Assembly: GCA_013265495.1 (NCBI GenBank)
Contig: MU057930.1
Span: 1,008,057 to 1,072,056 of the forward strand
Reading direction: 5' to 3'
Source of the DNA: Vicugna vicugna
Lineage: Eukaryota
Length of the DNA stretch: 64,000 nucleotides
A program made the position numbers and the translations under genes. How positions within the stretch are numbered: the first letter of the stretch is position 1; every line of letters starts with the position of its first letter. The notes beneath the pieces were generated by a model. The model was not told where the DNA came from. It saw only the letters and a program-made list of their open reading frames with translations, and searched no databases. Below are positions 1-50,071 of this stretch, piece after piece.

Positions 1-1566
1 AAGGAACAGATCTCATGTGGAGTCAGATTTGTTCTTTTCTATTACAAAACTACACACTTGAAAGAGTGCGTTTTTTGATAGGTGAATTACATCTCAATAA
101 GCTGATAAAAACTTGCTGGGATTTGTATCAAGTGCCTACCCTGGGGATGGCCCCCGCACGTCTTCACGGCTCCATCTCATTGTGGAGAATGACACTAGTG
201 CATAGATGTGAGTGCAAAACCTTTGAAACCCACCGGTGTTGGTTTTGGCTTCTCAAAAAGTATGATCTTTGAATCAGATGCATCAGCATGTTCTGGGGGG
301 TGAATTTTGGTGCTGAATATCAGGTCCTGAATCCAAATCTGCAATTTAGCAAAATCTCAAAGGGATGCTCTGGACATCCCCACATCTGTTTGGGAAGCAG
401 AGTGGTACCCTTTGCCGTCCAAGAATTATTCGGTTGGGTTATTTGCTTCTAAGTGAGACTCACTTCTTTCAGGGAGATGTTTGAGCTCAATGAACTCACT
501 TTGGAGGTGGGTAGGTGGGAAATAAAGTGACTGAGTGAGTGACCAAATCAGTCTTAAGATGCCATCAGTCCCATTTTTCTATAAAAATGCCATGGAATTC
601 ATAGAATAGCATGGGGGTAACCACATGGCCACCATTATTAATAGGAATCTTAAAAAAAACGCAATTATAAGCAGACTGTTTAAAAAGAAATCATTACCCC
701 CAAAGAAGCCCGCTCTGTGCCTAAATGCACATTATCCAGTTTAGAGACCACAGATGTAGCATCGTGTCCTTAAAGTAAAATAACTTAAGGACATACGAGT
801 GGTTTCTACCTCGTGTGTGTATGAATTTGACAGATTTCAGTATCTCGGAGTCTCTTGTGCAGAATAGAGGTAACCCGCATGCCCCCGCTTCATTCGGAAA
901 GAGTCTTGATCCAAGAATCAGAGGTGTGTAGAAACGGTCCAAAAATTCTATCACGAGCTGACAATGGCTCGTATTCTGCCCACATGACTTGTTTCCGACT
1001 GAATTTGTTGCTCCTTTGTGGGAAACACTTAGAGAATGATACTCATATAACCGCTCAGATATTCATGATTCTCCCACGAAAACCAGGCTTGGATACAGAG
1101 TCTGGTTCCTGGATGTGTGTTAATTTGGATCATAAAGTATCATCTTAAGATTTATTTTCTGTAAGACGGAAAGTGTCACATTTCATGGTGTTGACATGCT
1201 GCCTGGCAACTGGCTTTTGTCACTGTCTCATGTGGACTGGCTTTGCCAGAGAGGAAAATGATATAAATAGAATTTAAAAATCTTAGTGTTGCATATTTAG
1301 GCAATATTTATTCAATGCTAATGTTGCAAAATGATTGCCCTGCAATCATGCAAATAAGTTCATTTGTCTTTTTTCTTTCTCTAGATTCCACCCTGTCTTA
1401 AAGCGGGAACAATTCACTCAGTGACCTTTTCTCACAGGTACTCAATTTCCTCCCATTCTCACGGTTTCTTCTACCCCTGTTTAATCAATTTTATTTTTAT
1501 TATCTACCTGCAGTTGCCAGCGGGTTTTATTAAAGAAACCTTGCAGATATTATCTTTATAAGCTCT

Positions 1567-2560: not shown

Positions 2561-5500
2561 TTTTTTTGTATATGTATAGTTTTATGGAAGTAGAGTCGGT
2601 TTACAATGCTGTGTCAATTTCTGGTGCACAGCACAGTGCTTCAGTCATAGGAACGTGCATATATTCATTTTCATATTCTTTTTTACTGTAAGTTACTGCA
2701 AGATATTGAAGATAGTTCCCTGTGCTGTGCAGTATGAACTTGCTGTTTATCTACTTTATATGTGTTAGTACCTGCAAATCTCAAAGTCCCAATTTACCCT
2801 TCCCACAAGTAAGCATAAGTTTGTTTTCTATGTCTGTGAGTCTGTTTCTGTTTTGTAAATAAGTTTATTTGGCTTCTTTTTTTAGATTTCACATATAAGT
2901 GATATCATACGGTATTTTTCTTTCTCTTTCTGGCTTCACTTAGAATGACAATCTCCAGGTCTATCCTTATTGCTGCAAAAAGCATTACTTCATTCTTTTT
3001 TATGGCTGAGTAGTATTCCATGGCATAAAAATACCACCTCTTCTTTATCCAGTCATCTGTCCATGGGCATTTAGGTTGCTTCCATGTCTTGACTATTGTA
3101 AATAGTGCTGCTGTGAATATTGGGGTGCCTGTATCTTTTTGAATTAAGATTCCCTCTGGATATATGCCAGGAGTGGGATTGCCAGATCATATGGTGAGTC
3201 TATTTTTAATCTTTTGAGGAATCTCCATATTGTTTTCCATAATGCCTGCAAACTGCATTCCCACCAGCAGTGTAGGAGGGTTCCCTTTTCTCCACAGCCT
3301 CTCCAGCATTTGTCATTTGTGGACTTTTGAATGATGGCCATTCTGACTGGTGTCAAATGATACCTCATTGTAGTTTTGATTTGAATTTTTGTGATAATTA
3401 GTGATAGCATTTTTCCATGCTCCTATTAGCCATTTGTACATTTTCATTGGATAATTATTTATTTAGGCCCTCTGCCCATTTTTGGATTGGTTTGTGTGGG
3501 TTTTTTATTAAGTTGTATGAGCTGTTAATATATTCTGAAAATTAAGACCTTGTCAGTCTCATATTTTGCAAATATTTTTTCCCATTCCATAAGTTGTCTT
3601 TTGTTTTTCTCATGGTTTCCTTTGCTGTGCAAAAGCTTATAAACTTAATTAGGTCCCCTTTGTTTATTTTTGCTTATTTTTTCTATTGCCTGGCTAGACT
3701 GCCTTAGGAAAACATCGCTGAGATTTATGTCAGATAACGTACCTAACTTTTCTTCTAAAAGGTTTATAGTGTCTTGTCTTATGTTTAAATCTTTAAGCCA
3801 TTTTGAATTTATTTTTGTGTATGGTGCGTAGGAGTATTCTAACCCCATGGATTTACATGCAGCTGTCCAGTTTTCCCAACACCACTTGCTGAAGACAGTG
3901 TCTTTATTCCACTGGTATGTTCTCGCCTCCTTTGTCAAAGACTAATTGACCAAAAGTTTGTGGATTTCCTTCTGAGCTGTCTGTTTTGTTCCATTGATCC
4001 GTGTCTGTTTTTGTATGAATACCATGCTGTTTTGATGGCTGTAGCTCTGTAGTATTGTCTGAAATCTGGGAGAGTTTTTCGTCCAGCTTCATTCTTTTTC
4101 TTCAGTATTGCTTTGGCAGTTCTGGGTCTTTTGTGATTCCATATAAATTTTAGATTTATTTGTTCTAGTTCTGTGAAAAGGTGTCCTGGATAATTTGATA
4201 GAAATCACATTAAATCTGTAGATTTCTTTGGATATTATGGTCATTTTAAGAATATGAATTCTTCCAATCCAAGAACATGGGATATCTTTCCATTTCTTTT
4301 AAGTCATCTTTAATTTCCTTGGTGAATGTTTAGTAGTTCTCCATATACAAGTCTTTCACTTCTTTGGTCAGATTTATTGTTAGTATCTTTTTTTTCTTGG
4401 ATGGAATTTTGAAAGAGATTGTTTGTTTATTTTCCTTTCCTTATATTTTGTTGTTAGTGTAAAGAAAGACAATTGATTGCTGTGTGTTAATCTTGTGACC
4501 TGCTACGTTGCTGAATTCTTTTATCAACTCTAGTAGTTTTTATGTGGACCTTCTAGGGTTTTCTATATATAGTAAGTCATCTGCATCTAATGACAATTTT
4601 ACCTCTTCTCTTTCAATCTGGATCACTTTTATTTCTCTCTCTTGCCTGATTGCTGTGGCCAGGACTTCCAGGACTGTGTTGAATGGGAGTGGTGAGGGTG
4701 GGCAGCCTTGTCTTGTCCCAGGTTTTAGCACAAAGGCCTTCAGCTTTTCGCTGTGGAGCACTGTGCTGGCTGTAGGTTTGTCACAAGTAGCTTTTATTAT
4801 GTTGAGATATGTTCCCTCTAAACCCAGTTTGGGAAAGATTTTTATCGTAAATGGGTGTTGAATTTTATCAAATTCTTTGCCTGCATCTATTGAGATGATC
4901 ATGTGGTTTTTGTCCCTTCTCTTGTTGGTGTGGTGTATTACATTGATTGATTTGCGTATGTGGAACCGCCTTTGTGTCCCTGGGATGAACCCCACTTGGT
5001 CATGGTGTAGAATCTTTTTTATGTGTTGTTGGATTCTATTTGCTAAAATTTTGGTGAGGATTTTGGCGTCTATGTTCATCAGTGATATTGGCCTATAATT
5101 CTCTTTTTTTGTAGTGTCTTTGCCTGGTTTTGGGATCAGGGTGATGGTGGCTTCATAGAATGAGTTTGGAAGTTTTCCCTCCTTTTCAATCTTCGGGAGA
5201 GTTTGAGAAGGATCAGTATGTGCTCTTCTTTGTATGTTTGATAGAATTCTCCAGTGAAGTCATCAGGTCCTGGACTTCTGTTTGCAGGGAGTTTTTTTAT
5301 TGTTGATTCTATTTCACTTCTAGTGATTGGTTTGTTCAAATAATCTATGTCTTCTTGATTCAGTTATGGTGGACTGTATGTTTCCGGAAACTTGCCCACT
5401 TCTTCTGAGTTGTCCAATTAATTGCCATACAGTCGTTCATAGTATTCTCTCATGATTTTTTGTATTTCTGTGGTGGTGTTTGAAATTTCTCCATTTTCTC

Positions 5501-7977: not shown

Positions 7978-7980
7978 ATC

Positions 7981-9332
7981 CTACTCTCCTACTCTCCTAC
8001 TCTCCTACTCTCCTACTCTCCGACTCTCCTACTCTCCTACTCTCCTACTCTCCGACTCTCCTACTCTCCTACTCTCCTACTCTCCGACTCTCCTACTCTC
8101 CTACTCTCCTACTCTCCGACTCTCCTACTCTCCTACTCTCCTACTCTCCGACTCTCCTACTCTCCTACTCTCCTACTCTCCGACTCTCCTACTCTCCTAC
8201 TCTCCTACTCTCCGACTCTCCTACTCTCCTACTCTCCTACTCTCCGACTCTCCTACTCTCCTACTCTCCTACTCTCCGACTCTCCTACTCTCCTACTCTC
8301 CTACTCTCCGACTCTCCTACTCTCCTACTCTCCTACTCTCCGACTCTCCTACTCTCCTACTCTCCTACTCTCCGACTCTCCTACTCTCCTACTCTCCTAC
8401 TCTCCGACTCTCCTACTCTCCTACTCTCCTACTCTCCGACTCTCCTACTCTCCTACTCTCCTACTCTCCGACTCTCCTACTCTCCTACTCTCCTACTCTC
8501 CGACTCTCCTACTCTCCTACTCTCCTACTCTCCGACTCTCCTACTCTCCTACTCTCCTACTCTCCGACTCTCCTACTCTCCTACTCTCCTACTCTCCGAC
8601 TCTCCTACTCTCCTACTCTCCTACTCTCCGACTCTCCTACTCTCCTACTCTCCTACTCTCCGACTCTCCTACTCTCCTACTCTCCTACTCTCCGACTCTC
8701 CTACTCTCCTACTCTCCTACTCTCCGACTCTCCTACTCTCCTACTCTCCTACTCTCCGACTCTCCTACTCTCCTACTCTCCTACTCTCCGACTCTCCTAC
8801 TCTCCTACTCTCCTACTCTCCGACTCTCCTACTCTCCTACTCTCCTACTCTCCGACTCTCCTACTCTCCTACTCTCCTACTCTCCGACTCTCCTACTCTC
8901 CTACTCTCCTACTCTCCGACTCTCCTACTCTCCTACTCTCCTACTCTCCGACTCTCCTACTCTCCTACTCTCCTACTCTCCGACTCTCCTACTCTCCTAC
9001 TCTCCTACTCTCCGACTCTCCTACTCTCCTACTCTCCTACTCTCCGACTCTCCTACTCTCCTACTCTCCTACTCTCCGACTCTCCTACTCTCCTACTCTC
9101 CTACTCTCCGACTCTCCTACTCTCCTACTCTCCTACTCTCCGACTCTCCTACTCTCCTACTCTCCTACTCTCCGACTCTCCTACTCTCCTACTCTCCTAC
9201 TCTCCGACTCTCCTACTCTCCTACTCTCCTACTCTCCGACTCTCCTACTCTCCTACTCTCCTACTCTCCGACTCTCCTACTCTCCTACTCTCCTACTCTC
9301 CGACTCTCCTACTCTCCTACTCTCCTACTCTC
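7981..9332. repeat. Perfect tandem array of 169 octamers CTACTCTC with 32-bp higher-order unit (CGACTCTC + 3x CTACTCTC)
   Basis: Five CTACTCTC units, then the variant CGACTCTC at 8021 and every 32 bp to 9301 (41 copies); no other mismatches seen. Confidence 0.97.
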
Positions 9333-9346
9333 CTCTCCCTGCCCTG

Positions 9347-9479
9347 GGACTTGAACCTACAACCTCCTGCATGCTAGCCCTGCTCTCTACCCCTAACCTA
9401 TAGCCTCACTCTAGCTACCTGACTTCCCTTTCCCTCACCTTTATCTCCTACACTGACAGACTATGCTGAGTCCCTGGTT
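9347..9479 (-). repeat. Left arm of inverted repeat ending in a tRNA-like segment (Pol III A/B-box-like, 9347-9405)
   Basis: Reverse complement aligns ungapped with 9615-9747 (~94/133 by hand count); B-box-like GGTTCAAGTCC on minus. Confidence 0.8.
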
Positions 9480-9540
9480 CCTGACCCTGTGTGATGTATC
9501 CAAAAACCATTCATGTATTTTGTCTTCTCTCTTCTTTCAG

Positions 9541-9665
9541 CAGGCACACTTACATCCACTGTCCATTGCTCCATCTTCACTGGAAACAGAAATGAAATGT
9601 CTTTTTCAGAGAGTAACCTGGGACCCAGCATTCTCCCTCAGCTGAGGAGATAAATCCCTGTGCAG
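9541..9665 (+). other. Candidate non-coding exon
   Basis: Strong polypyrimidine acceptor tgtcttctctcttctttcag and donor CAG|gtaaag; stop codons in all three frames. Confidence 0.35.
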
Positions 9666-9747
9666 GTAAAGTAACATAGCTAGCGACAGCCTGTAGCTCA
9701 GGGGTTGACACCAGGGCTATCATGCCAGAGGTCCTGGGTTCAAGCCC
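9615..9747 (+). repeat. Right arm of inverted repeat ending in a tRNA-like segment (9689-9747)
   Basis: TAGCTCAGGGG A-box-like and GGTTCAAGCCC B-box-like motifs; inverted partner of 9347-9479. Confidence 0.8.
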
Positions 9748-10229
9748 TGCAGAATGGCATAGGTGAGATACTTTGCTGGAAGCAGAAATCAAATTTCATG
9801 TTTTGATAATTGCAGTACATCCTTCACACCTTTCTCTGTTGCTGTCTATGCTTACGAAATTTCCCAAAAAGTCTGAATTTACTTAGGGGCCCAATAGATC
9901 TCGCTGGACTTGCTAGACTCTTAGGATCAAGAGTTGCAACTCATCCATCCTTTTGTTCAGTCACAATGATCAGAGGTGGAAGGTTGGTGACTGCGTCATT
10001 CTGACCACATTTTGCCTTGCCGTCAGGCCACATACACTGGGACAGCCACTTGTTACATTTCAGGTTGCAGCTCAGCGTCTGACGTGAATTCATTGCACTT
10101 AGCCATGTAGATAAATTATAAACATCAGGCCCACCACATGCTAGTCATTCTAGCTAAAGACAAATCCTGTTTTGTTTGTTTGCTAGTTTGCTCCTTTACT
10201 ACTTTGGCAGACATTTGATCCTACTTAAA

Positions 10230-10385
10230 TTAGATATATATTAAATATAATATTAAATATATTATATTTTAATGTAGTGTAAATTTAACATATTAATATA
10301 TATATATTTATATATTTACAATATGATTTATATGTTAAAAAATACATATATATTAAAAATATATATATATCAAATATAATAATAC
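10230..10385. repeat. AT-rich low-complexity tract
   Basis: Almost only A/T, (AT)n-like. Confidence 0.85.
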
Positions 10386-11063
10386 ATCCATGATACGTGG
10401 AACTGTTCAACTGTGAACTCAGTAACCTGCTTCTCAAAACTCCGGATACGTTCCAGCACAGCTTTCCCACTACACTTGTCCACAGACACTGGGCTCCACC
10501 AAAACCAGTCCACCTTCGAAACACAGCCTGTACTTTCCATACAGATGGGAAAGGCTCCCTGGTGCCTTTTACGATTTCATCTTTCCATTTGGCAAAGACG
10601 CAATGTTTAGACTACGAGCACATTTTCGGATCAACAAGAATAGACATGGGAGACAATCAAATAAACGAACAATGCAGCTTTCTATACCCTGCTAAACTAT
10701 CACTCAAGAGTGATGATACAGCCAATCTGGGAAACCCGTAATGGAATATAACTTCTGCAGTATCTCATCATCACCCCACGGAAACCAAGGAACTACAATA
10801 ACAGAGCCAAAATCCACAAATAAAATCTACCAAAAAAACAAAAACAAAACACTAGGTGAAAAGCTATCTTGAGCCCTATCATAGTGACATTACAAAAAAC
10901 CAAGGCCAATGTGGCAGAGACAGCAGACTTGTGACTTTCAAAGGAATATGCTTTAGATGTCCAACTGATTATGCAACAGTAACAATGGATGCCAGGGGGC
11001 GAAATTGCCTCAAACTCAAAAAACTGTGAATATAGAATCCTATACTCAGGGAAATTAATTTTA

Positions 11064-11704
11064 TTCACTGATTTATTTATGTATATCTTCACTGAAGGAC
11101 AGTGTACAATGTGTCAGTTTACAACATGTCACTGTCTGGTGTACAGCGTAATGCTTCAGTGATACATGAACATACATATATTCATTTTCATATTCTTTTC
11201 CACCATAAGTTAGTTACTACAAGATATCAGTTAGAGTTTCCCATGCTCTACAAAAGAAACTTGTGGTTTGTCTATTTCATACATATTAGTTACTATCTCC
11301 AAATCTAGAACTCCCAGTTTATCCCTTCCCAACCCCTCCCCACCAGAACCATAGGTTTCTTTTCTATGTCCATGTGTCTGCTTCTGTTTTGTAAGTAACT
11401 TTTTTTTTAAGATTCCACATATAAGTGATATGATCTGTTATTTTCCTTTCTCCTTCTGGCTTACTTCATCTAGACTGATAATCTCCAGGTCCATCCATAT
11501 TGCTCCAAATGGCATTATTTCATTCTTTTTCATGACTGAGTAGTATTCTGTTGTATAAATAGATCACACCTTCTTTATCCAGGCCTCTGTCAATTGTTAT
11601 GTTCTGTTTCTTCCAGAAACAGACTGTATGTCTTCATTGGAGAATGGCTTGTTTAGGTTTTCTGCCCATTTTTGGATTGGGGTGTTTGTTCATTTTTCTC
11701 ATTA
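11064..11704 (-). mobile_element. L1 3' end with internal deletion, inserted in an older L1 ORF1-end remnant
   Basis: Reverse L1 3'UTR and ORF2 end; diverged TSD-like ggaaattaatttta / ggaaaaataatttta at the flanks. Confidence 0.8.
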
Positions 11705-11899
11705 GGAAAAATAATTTTACAATGAAGGCAAAAATAGACATTTTTAAATGAACATACACAGAGCTTGCCACCTGTAGATGGACTAAAAGATGTAATTCAG
11801 AAGGAGAATGATCTGAGAGAGACTGTCTCGTGCAAAACCAGGTGACTTTCTAAAATGCTGAACTGTATTTAGGCAAATCTACATGAGTACTGATCTCCA

Positions 11900-12110
11900 C
11901 CAGAAACCTGTTAGAAACAGTGAACAAATTTAGGGAAGTTTCAGTATAAAAAATCAATATACAAAAGTTAGTTCTGCCTCTGTACACTAACAACAAAATA
12001 TCTGAGAGAAATATGGAGAACAATCCTATTTACAATTTCATCAAGAACAACAAAAAATACCTAGGAATAAGAAAGACCTGTACAATGAAAACTGTCAGAC
12101 AATCATGAAA
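11900..12110 (+). mobile_element. L1 ORF2 fragment
   Basis: ctgttagaa..aaatttag..aaaaatcaatatacaaaa..tacactaacaac..aaatacctaggaataa, post-RT L1 sequence. Confidence 0.75.
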
Positions 12111-12439
12111 GGAGGGGGAGGGGCAGCCATCATCACCAACTTATTATATTCTCATGAGAAAACATATTCATTTTTATTTTTCAGCCAAGTGGGCATTTTC
12201 TTCATATATGCTGGGAAAAAAGAGAGATTTTAATTTAATTTAAGGACCATCTTTATTAAAGTTGGATCAATAATTTTATCATCCATTGAAAGATGAGAAG
12301 GAACCAATGAGAGTTTATCATCCAAATGCTTCCTCTGTCAAGAGTTACAACAAATAAACAAAAATTTAGGAGACGTACCACAGGCAGCTTGCTGAACGAG
12401 AGGCTTTGAAATATCTGCAATAGTCACTGTCAAGATGAC

Positions 12440-37589: not shown

Positions 37590-37669
37590 AAGAGGCGGGA
37601 GTAGAGCTCAGTGGTTGAGTGCAGGCTTAGCATGCACAAGGTCCTTGGTTCAACCTCCGAGTTCCTCCA

Positions 37670-37723
<54 letters not shown>
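37590..37723 (+). mobile_element. tRNA-derived SINE (Vic-1-like) with A52 tail
   Basis: agctcagtgg A box, cttagcatgc Ala(AGC)-like anticodon region, ggttcaacc B box; TSD GATTCCTTCT at 37580-37589 / 37724-37733. Confidence 0.9.
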
Positions 37724-37725
<2 letters not shown>

Positions 37726-39543
37726 TTCCTTCTGCATACTAACATTTAAGAGGATTTTTTAAATGTTATTTTCATTATTTTTTTAATTTTAATTTTTTTT
37801 TATTGAAGTACCATCAGCTACAACATGTCCATTTCTGGTGAACAGCACACTGTCCCAGTCATGCATACACATACCTATTAAAACGTTACTTTTAAAAAGT
37901 CGGTGCTAATCTATTTCATTCTGAACTATCAGGATGGTGTGTTCTCTTCTGGTAAATTCATTTTAGGATTTTATATGTCTTGTAACAGGCTACTCAGTCT
38001 CTGGTGAGCTTGTTGGCTAACCTCGCCATTAGTAATTAATATTGTTTTGCAGAAACAAGTCCTTTTTTTTTTTTTCCAAACAAATGACTCACCGTGGAAC
38101 CTTGGAGGAAGCACACATCAACGTTTGTAAATGTTGAACCCTAGAGGGCTCGTGAGTGAAGGACCGGCCTGGGAGCCTTTCTGGTGTGGGCATCGCCACC
38201 CTCCCGGCTGTTCGTGGATCTCAGAATTCCCCGGCCTCAGATAATATTTCTCCCTTACACTGTGCATTCTTTTCAACCTTAAATTCAAACTATGATGAAA
38301 ATGTTTTGAAAATCTATTTCCTACCCCTCTTAGACTCATTCTCCGTTCAACATCAGTGAACATTCTGCCGGAGGATGCCTTTAACGGGCTGAAGACTTTA
38401 TGTCGTGACAGATTTTGATGACAACCTCATGTAGCATTTTATTAAAAAAAAAAAAGATTTTGTCATGTTTTACGAATGAGTCCTTCGGTCGTTCAGAAAT
38501 CAAATGAACTCATTTGAGTATATGCTCAATTGGAGAGTGAGGGCTCGTCCACAAATGACTTCGTGCTAAAAAAACAGCGGCTCCGTTAAAGATGGCTACT
38601 TATCCATAAAGTAATGAATTTCGTAAATGAACTATTTGAACGGTGAAAAGCTGTCGGTACCAAGTTCTAACGGATGTTCCACATGGTAACAAGTAGCTTT
38701 TCAATCCACAGCTACTTGACGCCTTTCTTGAGCATTTCTATAATATCCTATATCCTTAAAAAAGTAATCAAAATATGTAAGCGACGTACGCCGGGGTATC
38801 AGAGACCCGTGATTCCTTCTGGCCTGATTTCACACAGCACGTGTGCAGGTGGCTTATATATTTTTATATTCACGGTGCTAAAACGGGACACTGCTGGTCA
38901 CTGCCTGCCAAGGCTCGGAGCGGCAGGGAGGGAAAACGCAGCGCACGGCCACGTCTGCAGGGGGTCCGCTCCCTGCCCAGGACGGCCGTCTGCTTGGCGG
39001 TCCCGCCAGCAGGGCACCCCCTTCCCCCCCTTTTCAGTTTCCAAAGGCAGATGCTGTTGGAACAACATGCCCTGCAAAGCTGAGCCTTCCCTCGGCCCAG
39101 GGCGTGAGGTTCGTCTGTGTTGCTCAAGACACAGACTCTCCTTTTCCTTTGGTTTTGAATGATTCAGGAAAAGCCCAGGAGACTTATTTCTGATCAGAGA
39201 CACAGAAGAACGCCTGAAGGCGGCAGTGCCTGGAAGAACTTGGCTCTTTTGAGTTGAAAAAGAATGAAAACTGTCTTTGGTGTGGTCGCCCCACAAAGCT
39301 GGGGTGGGCCTCCACCCCCCACGTTTGGTTTGCTTATTGACATTGACGCAGGCACGTGTGTGCACATGCGTGCACACACACACACACACACACACATGAA
39401 AAGTTCCTGGCTCACATAGTGAAACTTGCTGGGGAGACCAGAGCAGGACACTTTCTATCGCATCCGAAAATGCCTAGACGGCACAGGGAGAGAAGTCTGC
39501 AGTGAGGCTGAAAATGGGTGTCACACAAGAAAGGAGACCACGC

Positions 39544-47570: not shown

Positions 47571-48797
47571 TTAATTTTGATGCCATCATGGACTTTTTTG
47601 AGGAAATGCAAACGGATGTCCCTTTGGATGCCTGGTTTCAGTGCTGGGCATGACAATTTATGCAAGTATAAATATTTTAACCCACCCCCTGCGAGGCTCC
47701 ATGCTCTATTTTGAGAAACCTGATGGACAAACTGGTAATTGCATCGGACACGGGCTTTCAATCAACTCGCCCGCAAGCTGTGCTTCGATGACTCGCTGCG
47801 CACCTGATAATTAATCATCGGCTTTCCTGCAAGAGGATAAATTCTGTGACGTCCCCCGGAGACACCTAAGTCTACACGCACCTCTTCCAGGGAAGCGTTG
47901 GGTCCTCTGAAAGCACAAACCTGTAAGTGTATCTTCTGCAACGTTGCAAGTGTGTGTGTCAGAGGCCTGCCCCGAAGGTAACCTTCCTTTTCCCCGTGGA
48001 GGGAGTCAGATTAATTACAGCTCAGCACCTCCCTGCCGGCGTCCCTCTCGACCATGTGGGGAGAGTCCGTCCGCAGAATGCTATTTATGCATCTCCTTTA
48101 AACCAGACTCGATTTGCCCAGACCTGTTTTCAGCATTCAACCTTATTACAGAGCCTCCGAAACAAATGAAAGGTCTTCGTTATGGTTACTGGTAAGGTGG
48201 TGGTGATGGGAGTGAAAAATATGTGGGGGGAAAAAAAAGATGTTAAACGTTCCAGATTCTACACTGTCAGGGACCAGGGTGTCTGGGGAAGGAGTGGCTG
48301 CATCAGCTAAATCCAGAAGATGAACTGAAAGCAGGAGAAGGAATTATTGAAATTAACATCAAACGTAACATCGAAAGTAACAGCGAAATGAATAGTATTT
48401 CCCAATAAAAGTATGAATTAAGGCAGAGGGAAACCAGGATGCAGATTTCACACGGACACTTATGAAGAAATCCCTAAGAGGGGGGGAGTGTGTTTGCAAA
48501 GGGATGCGGAGGGCGGAGACGGGTTGAGTCAGTTGCTTTAGGGTAAGCACTAAACCCACAAGTGTATGCGTCTTGCATCCCCTCGAAGGGAGGAAACTTT
48601 TCATTGTGTGAGCGGGCTGCCCTGTGCCCGAGGACACCTGCGTCTCTCCTTGCTGAAGCATTTACTGTTTGTCAGGCTTTGAGGTGAGCACTTTGAGGGA
48701 GGAAGGAGGGAGGAAGGGCGGGAAGGAGAGGGAGGGAGGAAGGAGAGGGAGGGAGGAAGGGAGGGAGCAAGGAGGAAGGGAGGGAGGGAGGAAGCAG

Positions 48798-49584
48798 NNN
48801 NNNNNNNNNNNNNNNNNNNNNNNNNNNNNNNNNNNNNNNNNNNNNNNNNNNNNNNNNNNNNNNNNNNNNNNNNNNNNNNNNNNNNNNNNNNNNNNNNNNN
48901 NNNNNNNNNNNNNNNNNNNNNNNNNNNNNNNNNNNNNNNNNNNNNNNNNNNNNNNNNNNNNNNNNNNNNNNNNNNNNNNNNNNNNNNNNNNNNNNNNNNN
49001 NNNNNNNNNNNNNNNNNNNNNNNNNNNNNNNNNNNNNNNNNNNNNNNNNNNNNNNNNNNNNNNNNNNNNNNNNNNNNNNNNNNNNNNNNNNNNNNNNNNN
49101 NNNNNNNNNNNNNNNNNNNNNNNNNNNNNNNNNNNNNNNNNNNNNNNNNNNNNNNNNNNNNNNNNNNNNNNNNNNNNNNNNNNNNNNNNNNNNNNNNNNN
49201 NNNNNNNNNNNNNNNNNNNNNNNNNNNNNNNNNNNNNNNNNNNNNNNNNNNNNNNNNNNNNNNNNNNNNNNNNNNNNNNNNNNNNNNNNNNNNNNNNNNN
49301 NNNNNNNNNNNNNNNNNNNNNNNNNNNNNNNNNNNNNNNNNNNNNNNNNNNNNNNNNNNNNNNNNNNNNNNNNNNNNNNNNNNNNNNNNNNNNNNNNNNN
49401 NNNNNNNNNNNNNNNNNNNNNNNNNNNNNNNNNNNNNNNNNNNNNNNNNNNNNNNNNNNNNNNNNNNNNNNNNNNNNNNNNNNNNNNNNNNNNNNNNNNN
49501 NNNNNNNNNNNNNNNNNNNNNNNNNNNNNNNNNNNNNNNNNNNNNNNNNNNNNNNNNNNNNNNNNNNNNNNNNNNNNNNNNNNN
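48798..49584. other. Assembly gap (787 N), preceded by a GGAA/GGGA purine tract (48696-48797)
   Basis: Run of N. Confidence 0.99.
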
Positions 49585-49700
49585 GGGCGGGGGGCAGGAG
49601 CGGGGGTGCGAGGCGGGGCGCGGGCCATGTCCCCGCCGGCCCCAGCAGCGCGGTGGGCACGCTTCGCCTGGATGCGCGGAAGAAGACAGAAGAACAGAGT
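49585..49700. promoter_or_regulatory. Edge of a probable CpG island with GC boxes
   Basis: Very GC/CpG-rich (gggcggggggcaggagcgggggtgcgaggcggggcgcgggcc...) directly flanking the gap. Confidence 0.5.
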
Positions 49701-50071
49701 CACGTTTGCTGGAGTGGCGGCAAGAGCTAAAATTCCACAGTGAAGAACGGGGCTCAGAGCACGCGAGAAACAGAGCGAGAGAGTATTTTTAGCTCCTCGT
49801 TAAAGCCGGCAACGCAAAGTTAACTGCAATGGTTTATAATTTCATAATTCTGCTCTTTCCTATTATATATATTTTTTGCAAACAACTCTAGAGGCAGGGT
49901 GTTAAACGAACTGACGTTTCACAAGATTGACATTAATTGCCTAAACTTCTTAAATTGGTTACATCAAAAAAAAAAATGAGGCACAGATTATTTTAAAGAA
50001 AGCCTTAAAAAAATTTAGCAACAAAGTTAAATACATGGGTTATCACCATAAATCTATAAAATACGCCTATA

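Follow-up and report, generated by a model that had tools for sequence, protein, structure and literature searches.

Within a 64,000-nucleotide stretch of Vicugna vicugna DNA (assembly GCA_013265495.1, contig MU057930.1, positions 1,008,057 to 1,072,056 of the forward strand; the window in what follows), two related segments lie in opposite orientation at 9347–9482 and 9612–9747, each with an outer head that resembles that of a tRNA-derived short interspersed element (SINE). We conclude that this inverted repeat most probably belongs to a low-copy noncoding repeat family, as the core of a single, old and decaying copy, and arose by the nested, backward insertion of a SINE-like module, a reading drawn from the comparison of sequences. 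The segment at 9347–9482 (minus strand), defined by an inverted-repeat search and by alignments, is one family unit made of a leader and a head; we call it the resident arm, or T arm. The segment at 9612–9747 (plus strand) is a second family unit of an older sequence type, which we call the inverted arm, or I arm.

The two arms form a long imperfect inverted repeat

Segments 9347–9479 and 9615–9747 align as reverse complements on a single ungapped diagonal with a coordinate sum of 19094. Identity is 94/133, distributed over three blocks as 45/59 (9347–9405), 18/34 (9406–9439) and 31/40 (9440–9479), and the counts made by hand in an earlier reading of the same letters (the original prediction) were thus reproduced exactly. 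Extending the diagonal to 9482 brings the identity to 96/136, and an inverted-repeat search of the window returned arms of 136 nt, 71% complementary, with 129 nt between them. Pairing ends abruptly on both sides, with 5/20 matches in the next 20 nt outward and 7/28 in the next 28 nt inward. When 9340–9775 was shuffled 200 times, the top 136-nt inverted diagonal reached 56 matches (mean 50.4); the 96 matches of the real sequence stand far above this maximum and exclude chance.

The predicted fold of 9340–9775 has −150 kcal/mol for the plus-strand RNA (z −5.5) and −192 kcal/mol for the minus-strand RNA (z −9.9), and on neither strand was any of 100 shuffles as stable. The stronger fold of the minus strand is due to its larger share of G-U compatible mismatches, 10 of 40 versus 3 on the plus strand. 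In a transcript of the region, if there is one, the arms would be expected to pair into a long imperfect hairpin, as in other inverted SINE pairs. Among such pairs are the inverted-repeat Alus of primate transcripts, and the arms share their layout of two related, SINE-derived units in opposite orientation, here 129 nt apart, with a long and stable predicted duplex. Unlike the Alus, the pair described here would have been inherited ready-made within a composite repeat and not assembled at the locus by two chance insertions.

Both arms contain AGGGGT and CAGGGCTA, and neither motif occurs in the SINE at 37595–37672 which, together with 12 others elsewhere, we take to match the camelid Vic-1 SINE. 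The claim that the arms share variants missing from Vic-1-like SINEs was therefore upheld at this copy, but BLAST and a pattern scan found only one such SINE in the window where two had been announced; two other pattern matches, when read, were not SINEs. An A tail is absent from both arms, as had been claimed and as the sequence flanking each arm confirms: the left arm adjoins a (CTACTCTC)n array, and beyond the right arm lie 23 nt of degenerate, purine-rich sequence.

The arms are units of a low-copy interspersed family

The genome searched was a 2.03-Gb assembly of camelid type in 12,405 contigs, and all motif counts in it are lower bounds. A query with the right arm gave nine genome matches, three of which span the whole arm at 79–80%. 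At each of these three loci (L002, L003 and L004) the two arms are present together with the adjoining body and, just beyond the left arm, a tandem array built on octamers. BLAST located the whole palindrome, its outer junction included, at four further places in the genome with 75–81% identity, so that the notion of a structure unique to this locus is not borne out. A second query, 10374–11120, brought up 12 further candidate places, most of them also with arms. A 21-nt motif of the head has at least 38 genome matches versus 1 for the reversed control, and inspection of 30 such loci showed 17 family copies, 12 ordinary A-tailed Vic-1-type SINEs and one chance match; a 26-nt motif of the leader, absent from Vic-1, has at least 27 matches versus 2 for the control. 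Judged by their common sequence, these copies are one noncoding interspersed repeat family with tens of members.

Read on the minus strand of the window, the plan of a family copy is a body of ~1.1 kb (10872 to 9786), then a T-run or leader, the unit, and a GA-rich octamer array. The unit measures 136–165 nt and consists of a ~70-nt leader that includes GAGATAAAG/GTGAGT (the slash marks a donor-like boundary), and then a ~68-nt head, which resembles Vic-1-type tRNA SINEs and probably descends from a tRNA SINE of Vic-1/CHR type. In the T arm the leader, within 9347–9482, reads GAGATAAAG/GTGAGG, and the head, at ~9414–9347, has the A-box-like motif TAGGTTAGGGG and the B-box-like motif GGTTCAAGTCC. 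The ~75-nt leader block was found in 29/29 aligned units long enough to show it, also in those of single-arm copies, and AAGGTGAG (AAG/GTGAG) is kept in 16/29. The statement that homology extends ~75 nt beyond the tRNA part was thus correct as to extent, but the block is the ordinary leader of the family unit and not something peculiar to the palindrome. The related claim that the arms are not two ordinary Vic-1 SINEs also proved sound, since they are units of a separate family with a leader and a GA-rich array.

The array beside the resident unit (7979–9333, minus strand) is an octamer microsatellite and represents the variable 'tail' of the family. It reads (CTACTCTC/CGACTCTC)n on the plus strand and (GGAGAGTA)n on the minus strand. 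According to Tandem Repeats Finder (TRF), it covers 1.36 kb with a period of 32, 42.3 copies and 99% matches, the 32-bp higher-order unit being TCCTACTCTCCGACTCTCCTACTCTCCTACTC; a recent local expansion of the array is suggested. GA-rich octamer arrays or short GA-rich runs come after the unit in 17/17 family loci shown, with lengths from about 10 nt to 1.36 kb, and the array of L024, of the same type, is 94.6% alike to that of the window. The window array is far longer than its counterparts in most other copies.

The proximal part of the body (9786–10240, minus strand) is noncoding and collinear with L017, L018, L019, L020, L023, L036 and others at 70–82%. An AT-rich simple-repeat insertion at 10241–10373 (TRF rows 10229–10378), private to the window copy, splits the body; other copies continue from ~10240 directly to 10374 without it. 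In the distal part (10374–10872, minus strand), the plus strand reads AATAAA at ~10818 and an A-rich run at 10828–10852. Long copies agree as far as ...TAGGTGA.AAG.TATCTTGA at ~10872, the family boundary, and then diverge, with the window, L017 and L018 on one side versus L019 and L020 on the other. An extension of the family beyond 10872 was considered and rejected, as the ~1 kb that follows in L019 and L020 occurs in those two copies alone. Between the arms, the inner part of the spacer (9483–9574, minus strand) is the family leader of the window's own sublineage. It is common to L033 (9349–9556, 78%) and partly to L051 (9321–9492, 84.6%), which are single-arm or incompletely seen copies; compared with the leaders of other copies, the similarity of the spacer does not rise above shuffles, except for a 32-nt direct repeat described below.

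Pfam gave no TE-like (transposable-element-like) match when 87 open segments, drawn from the window and from four family copies, were scanned. One locus, L020, holds at 91–537 (plus strand) a 149-aa open segment with a PI-PLC-Y exon (PF00387, E 9.7e-24), which lies in the flank and occurs in no other locus; the L020 copy sits in or beside a PLC gene, and the exon is unrelated to the family. A tRNA gene was rejected as an identity for the heads, neither ARAGORN nor the Rfam tRNA model recognizing a cloverleaf: ARAGORN reported none in the window, and Rfam gave no tRNA match on 9000–10100 even at E ≤ 10. Rfam returned nothing at the gathering threshold, and at E ≤ 10 on 9000–10100 it returned three unrelated weak matches (IS009, sR14 and Ocean-VII). 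The excerpted text of a survey of Camelus transposable elements (PMC8605555) does not mention the family.

As the excerpted SINEBase description has it, Vic-1 is a simple head-plus-tail tRNA-derived SINE of camelids, and a SINE is an element of <1 kb whose 5′-terminal head, derived from an RNA polymerase III (Pol III) transcript, is at least 60% alike over at least 60 nt to tRNA, 5S or 7SL RNA (PMC3531059). The outer ~50–68 nt of each arm are homologous to the Vic-1 head, with 75–78% identity to the copy at 37595–37672 (75% over 52 nt for the T-arm head) and the same A-box/B-box layout, and older family units, which have TAGCTCAGTGG and GGTCCTGGGTT, are closer still. However, the family head is preceded by the ~70-nt leader of the unit and is tied to the ~1.1-kb body, the 12 genuine Vic-1-type copies have ...CCCCAGTACCTCCATTAAAAA tails whereas the 17 family copies have GA-rich octamer runs, and tens of copies lie below SINE scale. 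Membership of Vic-1 was rejected, the head being without a directly following A-rich tail in the family copies and in the window arms. By the copy-number criterion of SINEBase, membership among SINEs was rejected as well, with at least 38 matches to the head motif (17/30 of those inspected being family) and at least 27 to the leader motif; in most copies the head is not 5′-terminal, as the leader and the ~1.1-kb body precede it, and its likeness is to the head of a tRNA-derived SINE. A miniature inverted-repeat transposable element was likewise rejected: the arms are internal, lying between the array and 1.1 kb of body, seven aligned relatives possess one arm alone, and of the two arms in the window just one has a direct repeat around it.

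Origin of the inverted arm

Five places carry a second, inverted unit at the same junction, namely the window, L002, L003, L004 and L018, and in all five it sits after the body sequence ...AAATTTG.TTTCTGCTTCCAGCAAA. Seven aligned copies hold one unit (L036, L048, L049, L019, L022, L023 and L020). The body is joined directly to the unit in L036, L048, L049, L019, L022 and L023; in L020 the single unit is preceded by ~110 nt present in no other row of the alignment. We refer to the four palindromic places other than the window as lineage 'b'.

On its outer side the inverted unit has a reverse-complement remnant of a tail. It can be read plainly in the four 'b' copies, as CTCTCCTCTGTCCTTCCCC on the opposite strand; in the window it has degenerated, and alignment with the 'b' copies places it at 9748–9770 (plus strand) as the short purine-rich stretch CAGAATGGCATAGGTGAGATAC. 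Around the inverted module of the window lies a direct repeat, 9575–9606 and 9771–9802, whose second copy is also the end of the family body beside the module. The two copies agree at 25/32 positions (78%), with an alignment score of 36 versus a maximum of 26 in 100 shuffles, and are a candidate target-site duplication (TSD).

The two arms also differ in type. The I arms carry AGCTCAGGGG and GGTCCTGGGTT, which are common to the old copies L019 and L020 and to Vic-1; TAGGTCAGGGG and GGTTGTAGGTT are found in all T arms of palindromic copies and in most other T arms. The I arm of the window, with the A-box-like motif TAGCTCAGGGG and the B-box-like motif GGTTCAAGCCC, is 79% identical to the I arms of L002, L003, L004 and L018 and 70.6% identical to its own T arm, and the T arm is 83–87% identical to the T arms of other copies. 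Because the I arm is older in type and closer to other I arms, it is not a backward copy of its neighbour. The original prediction had proposed an old palindromic element or a local inverted duplication; the old palindrome stands, and the local duplication is contradicted by the states of the I arm, the tail remnant and the direct repeat.

We infer that the palindrome originated by nested retroposition. A module of 'unit + short tail', from a source copy of older type, would have inserted backwards, once, just upstream of the resident unit, and to judge by the flanking direct repeat this insertion would have duplicated ~32 nt of its target. The composite would then itself have been copied, so that one event would precede the divergence of the five palindromic copies. 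The window would keep the original spaced form, and the sister lineage 'b', at four places, would have lost ~115 nt between the arms. The four 'b' copies are indeed without these ~115 nt, and their arms abut; between copies these arms are 93–97% alike, and within a copy about 80–82%. Part of the similarity among 'b' copies is explained by segmental duplication, as the flanks of L018 and of L017, which is the same place as L004, are alike also outside the family boundary. The arms of the window have drifted apart by private substitutions since the insertion, from roughly 82% to 71% pairing.

A comparison of the window with the 'b' majority over 133 columns bears on this drift. Pairing is present in both at 79 columns, only in 'b' at 27, only in the window at 12 and in neither at 12, and three of the 133 columns pair in the window and in 'b' with different letters, the change having occurred on both arms. 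Among the 27 pairs that the window has lost, 14 come from the I arm departing from the general state and 8 from private T-arm changes. Such a distribution is consistent with neutral drift of the two arms since the insertion. Three T-arm sites in 'b' have I-type states, and there is one joint T-to-A change with the I arms; small as these numbers are, they may be hints of some arm-to-arm conversion in the 'b' lineage. What we found are ordinary copies of a repeat that has the 5′ block within its unit, diverging in a manner that looks neutral; the original prediction had named that outcome, in part, as one that would speak against it.

Another way to obtain the same structure would be for the palindrome to arise in place, through fold-back, template switching or hairpin-primed copying of the resident arm, and to be inherited later. 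The abutting arms of the four 'b' copies, with a loop of about 10–18 nt, would suit such a process, as would the other mirror junctions of the family in which a GA array passes straight into a CT-rich stretch (for example in L003) and the I-type states and joint change in the 'b' T arms just described, which could reflect arm-to-arm conversion. The process is difficult to reconcile, however, with an I arm that is older than its neighbour at several diagnostic sites (70.6% between I and T versus 83–87% between T arms of different copies), that has a tail remnant of its own and that is bracketed by a direct repeat. Moreover, the spaced form of the window is hard to derive from a fold-back, whereas a deletion readily turns the spaced form into the abutting one. 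We therefore consider an origin in place improbable.

Spread and mobility of the family

Several observations weigh against nested insertion followed by transposition of the composite. No TSD was found for whole copies, nine boundary settings on five copies all giving values within the shuffle range, and for this reason transposition of the family as a whole is deduced only from differing flanks and variable ends. Flanks are shared between L017 and L018 and between L019 and L020, whose extra ~1 kb is confined to these two, indicating DNA-level duplication for at least part of the spread. Units often occur in same-orientation pairs 0.8–4.5 kb apart, which suggests that copies were duplicated locally or that new ones inserted close to those already present. 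The 32-nt duplication around the inverted module is long for a LINE-type (long interspersed element) insertion, and its copies are just 25/32 alike. Finally, the GA array runs into a CT-rich stretch in L002, L003, L030, L045, L047 and L053. The mirror junction lies at 2128–2163 in L002, at 2612–2850 in L003, where it reads GGCAGGCAGGC/CTGCCTC, and after a three-unit tail in L030; the motif CCCCGCGCTCC at this point is common to L003 and L030. This GA/CT mirror junction fits no insertion model that we considered.

Examples of the same-orientation pairs are C10843:1569582/1570885, C6437:6454832/6455591, C3773:7722997/7727290 and C10920:1907726/1912018. Partial tandem duplications of body and unit are seen in L019 and in L027/L043.

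Some of these observations would be expected if no transposable element were involved and the family consisted of segmental duplicates of one ancestral locus, spread near microsatellite arrays. The shared flanks of L017/L018 and L019/L020, the local same-orientation pairs, the partial tandem duplications (L019, L027/L043 and L036 with L048), the failure to find whole-copy TSDs and the absence of poly(A) at most ends all agree with it. Yet the copies are scattered over many contigs, set in unrelated sequence on either side; their one constant and one variable end, together with the very short L030 and L047, make up a pattern of truncated retrocopies, and the inverted module resembles an insertion with a duplicated target. 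Segmental duplication as the sole source of the family is accordingly given little credence here, about as little as an origin of the palindrome in place.

For a family that moved by retroposition, the evidence as to the RNA strand points both ways. In favour of the minus strand, the array end is fixed and the other end varies (9422, 9879, 10037 and 10536–10872), and L030 and L047, with ~95–100 nt plus tail, start a few nucleotides before the head; the SINE head is in sense orientation, and the minus-strand RNA folds better. The plus strand would give the SVA-like order of a CT repeat, an antisense SINE piece and a unique part. In its favour, an A-run directly follows the unit in older copies, and the inverted module ends exactly there; in our reading, an A-run at a TTTT/GA-type site opens the repeat that flanks the module on this strand. 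Further points for the plus strand are the (AAAC)n ends of L019 and L020 and the loss of the array-side end of the head in L006. Neither strand is favoured by the failure to find whole-copy TSDs, the lack of poly(A) at most variable ends, the CT-rich stretch after the GA array in six copies, or the signs of DNA-level duplication. As to terminal poly(A), A tails are absent at the ends 9879, 10779 and 11120, (AAAC)n occurs only in L019 and L020, and an A-rich stretch occurs in L002.

SVA and LAVA are composite retrotransposons of hominoids, and the family is like them in some respects. If the plus strand is the sense strand, it has a CT-rich repeat, (CTACTCTC)n, followed by a reverse-complement head and a unique body. 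Copy number is low, copies carry extra flanking DNA, an A-run follows the unit in older copies, and the target duplication of the inverted module starts with an A-run at a TTTT/GA-type site. In contrast to SVA and LAVA, family copies are without a whole-copy TSD and poly(A) is absent at most ends; the fixed end would be 5′ and the variable end 3′, the reverse of the usual L1-driven truncation; there is no retroviral-derived part, and the host belongs to another clade. The likeness to SVA-type composites is one of layout only.

In LINE/SINE pairs of the 'stringent' type, the 3′ end is a stem-loop with short tandem repeats after it. With the minus strand taken as the RNA, the family offers a hairpin (in the palindromic subfamily), an octamer tail and truncation on the 5′ side. 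Unlike such ends, however, the hairpin is missing in most copies, the arms of 136–165 nt far exceed recognition stems, no partner LINE with this 3′ end was found, and the tail is often followed by a CT-rich stretch.

A tentative extension of these comparisons is to see in the family a possible new composite retroposon of camelids, with a Vic-1-type head and a GA-octamer end in place of an A-rich one. It might have moved either in the SVA-like, L1-driven manner, read antisense to the head, or in a Pol III/SINE-like one, with a microsatellite tail and some other reverse transcriptase as partner; a tendency to insert into or beside its own copies would have given rise to the hairpin-bearing subfamily. 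We hold this to be possible but rather doubtful. Under it, the 93–97% identity of arms between copies would mean that the hairpin-bearing subfamily was copied relatively recently.

Splice-like and promoter-like motifs

The donor-like motifs CAG/gtaaag (plus strand) and AAG/gtgagg (minus strand) are present as the original prediction described them. The minus-strand donor, AAG/GTGAGG at 9442/9441, is the GAGATAAAG/GTGAGT block of the family. The candidate acceptor, a polypyrimidine tract with AG at 9540 in the inter-arm spacer, is the reverse complement of the purine-rich leader common to L033 and is absent from the four 'b' copies. CAG/GTAAAG at 9665 (9663–9671 in the I arm, plus strand) is private to the window copy, and AAGGTGAG occurs in 0/5 I arms. 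The 125-nt candidate exon delimited by these sites, 9541–9665, has a stop in every frame. The proposed exon with its splice sites is not supported by this analysis: the donor and acceptor motifs are inherited or accidental, and all three frames are interrupted.

The A- and B-box-like motifs claimed for both arms were found, near-consensus, in the I and T heads. Past the I arm the first TTTT is at 9801, 54 nt beyond the arm end; the T-arm head has 1379 nt of array before its first TTTT. A and B boxes are an indication, not a proof, of a Pol III unit (PMC3531059, excerpted text). No run recorded as RNA covers the region. Contigs were assembled from four sequencing runs and showed no joints; those of two runs, guessed to be RNA, are short and match the T arm at 9365–9483 and 9352–9444 with 2–3 differences, which is no evidence either way. 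Nothing indicating selection or function was found at the locus.

That the palindrome is a functional element specific to this locus, either a divergent Pol III/TFIIIC site or an intronic double-stranded RNA that masks the 9665 donor or recruits ADAR, could be argued from the near-consensus boxes of both arms, the TTTT at 9801 and the strong predicted minus-strand hairpin with its G-U compatible mismatches, but we regard it as very improbable, because these features are inherited from a dispersed family that has single-arm relatives, pairing is decaying through private changes, the tRNA and Rfam scans were negative, the candidate exon has stops in three frames, a transcript from the T-arm head would have to run through 1379 nt of array before the first TTTT, and the boxes are an indication only.

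Other elements in the window

Among 24 long open reading frames of the window, the sole Pfam match is RVT_1 at 4540–5259 on the minus strand. The Vic-1-type SINE, at 37595–37742 with its tail, has a ~60-nt pure A tail and a flanking direct repeat, GATTCCTTCT, and looks like a young insertion. At 48601–49799, where GC is ~0.30, open frames of 345–395 aa occur in six frames; this is presumably a long stop-free simple repeat. Beyond the family boundary, a ~180-nt piece after 10872 is what we take to be the end of L1 ORF1 (sense), joined to an antisense L1 3′ end. Pfam gave 0/23 matches for segments of 10872–11050 and flanks, so that these L1 labels are tentative and draw on multi-copy behaviour in BLAST. 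The composite junction in 10872–12111 recurs in L021 and L022 and is shortened in L017 and L018.

Implications

The splice-like and promoter-like motifs of the palindrome belong to the repeat unit, so that it would be wrong to take the palindrome for a purpose-built regulatory hairpin or for an exon; it is better understood as a transposable-element fossil. It would illustrate how a single nested insertion can create a long inverted repeat that is later dispersed, ready-made, with the other copies of a repeat family. The family itself appears to be a low-copy camelid one with an unusual end, a SINE head plus a GA-octamer array that is often CT-mirrored, and the usual poly(A)/L1 route does not explain its movement. 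The locus as such matters little; the end of the family and its mobility are a minor lead for specialists in transposable elements.

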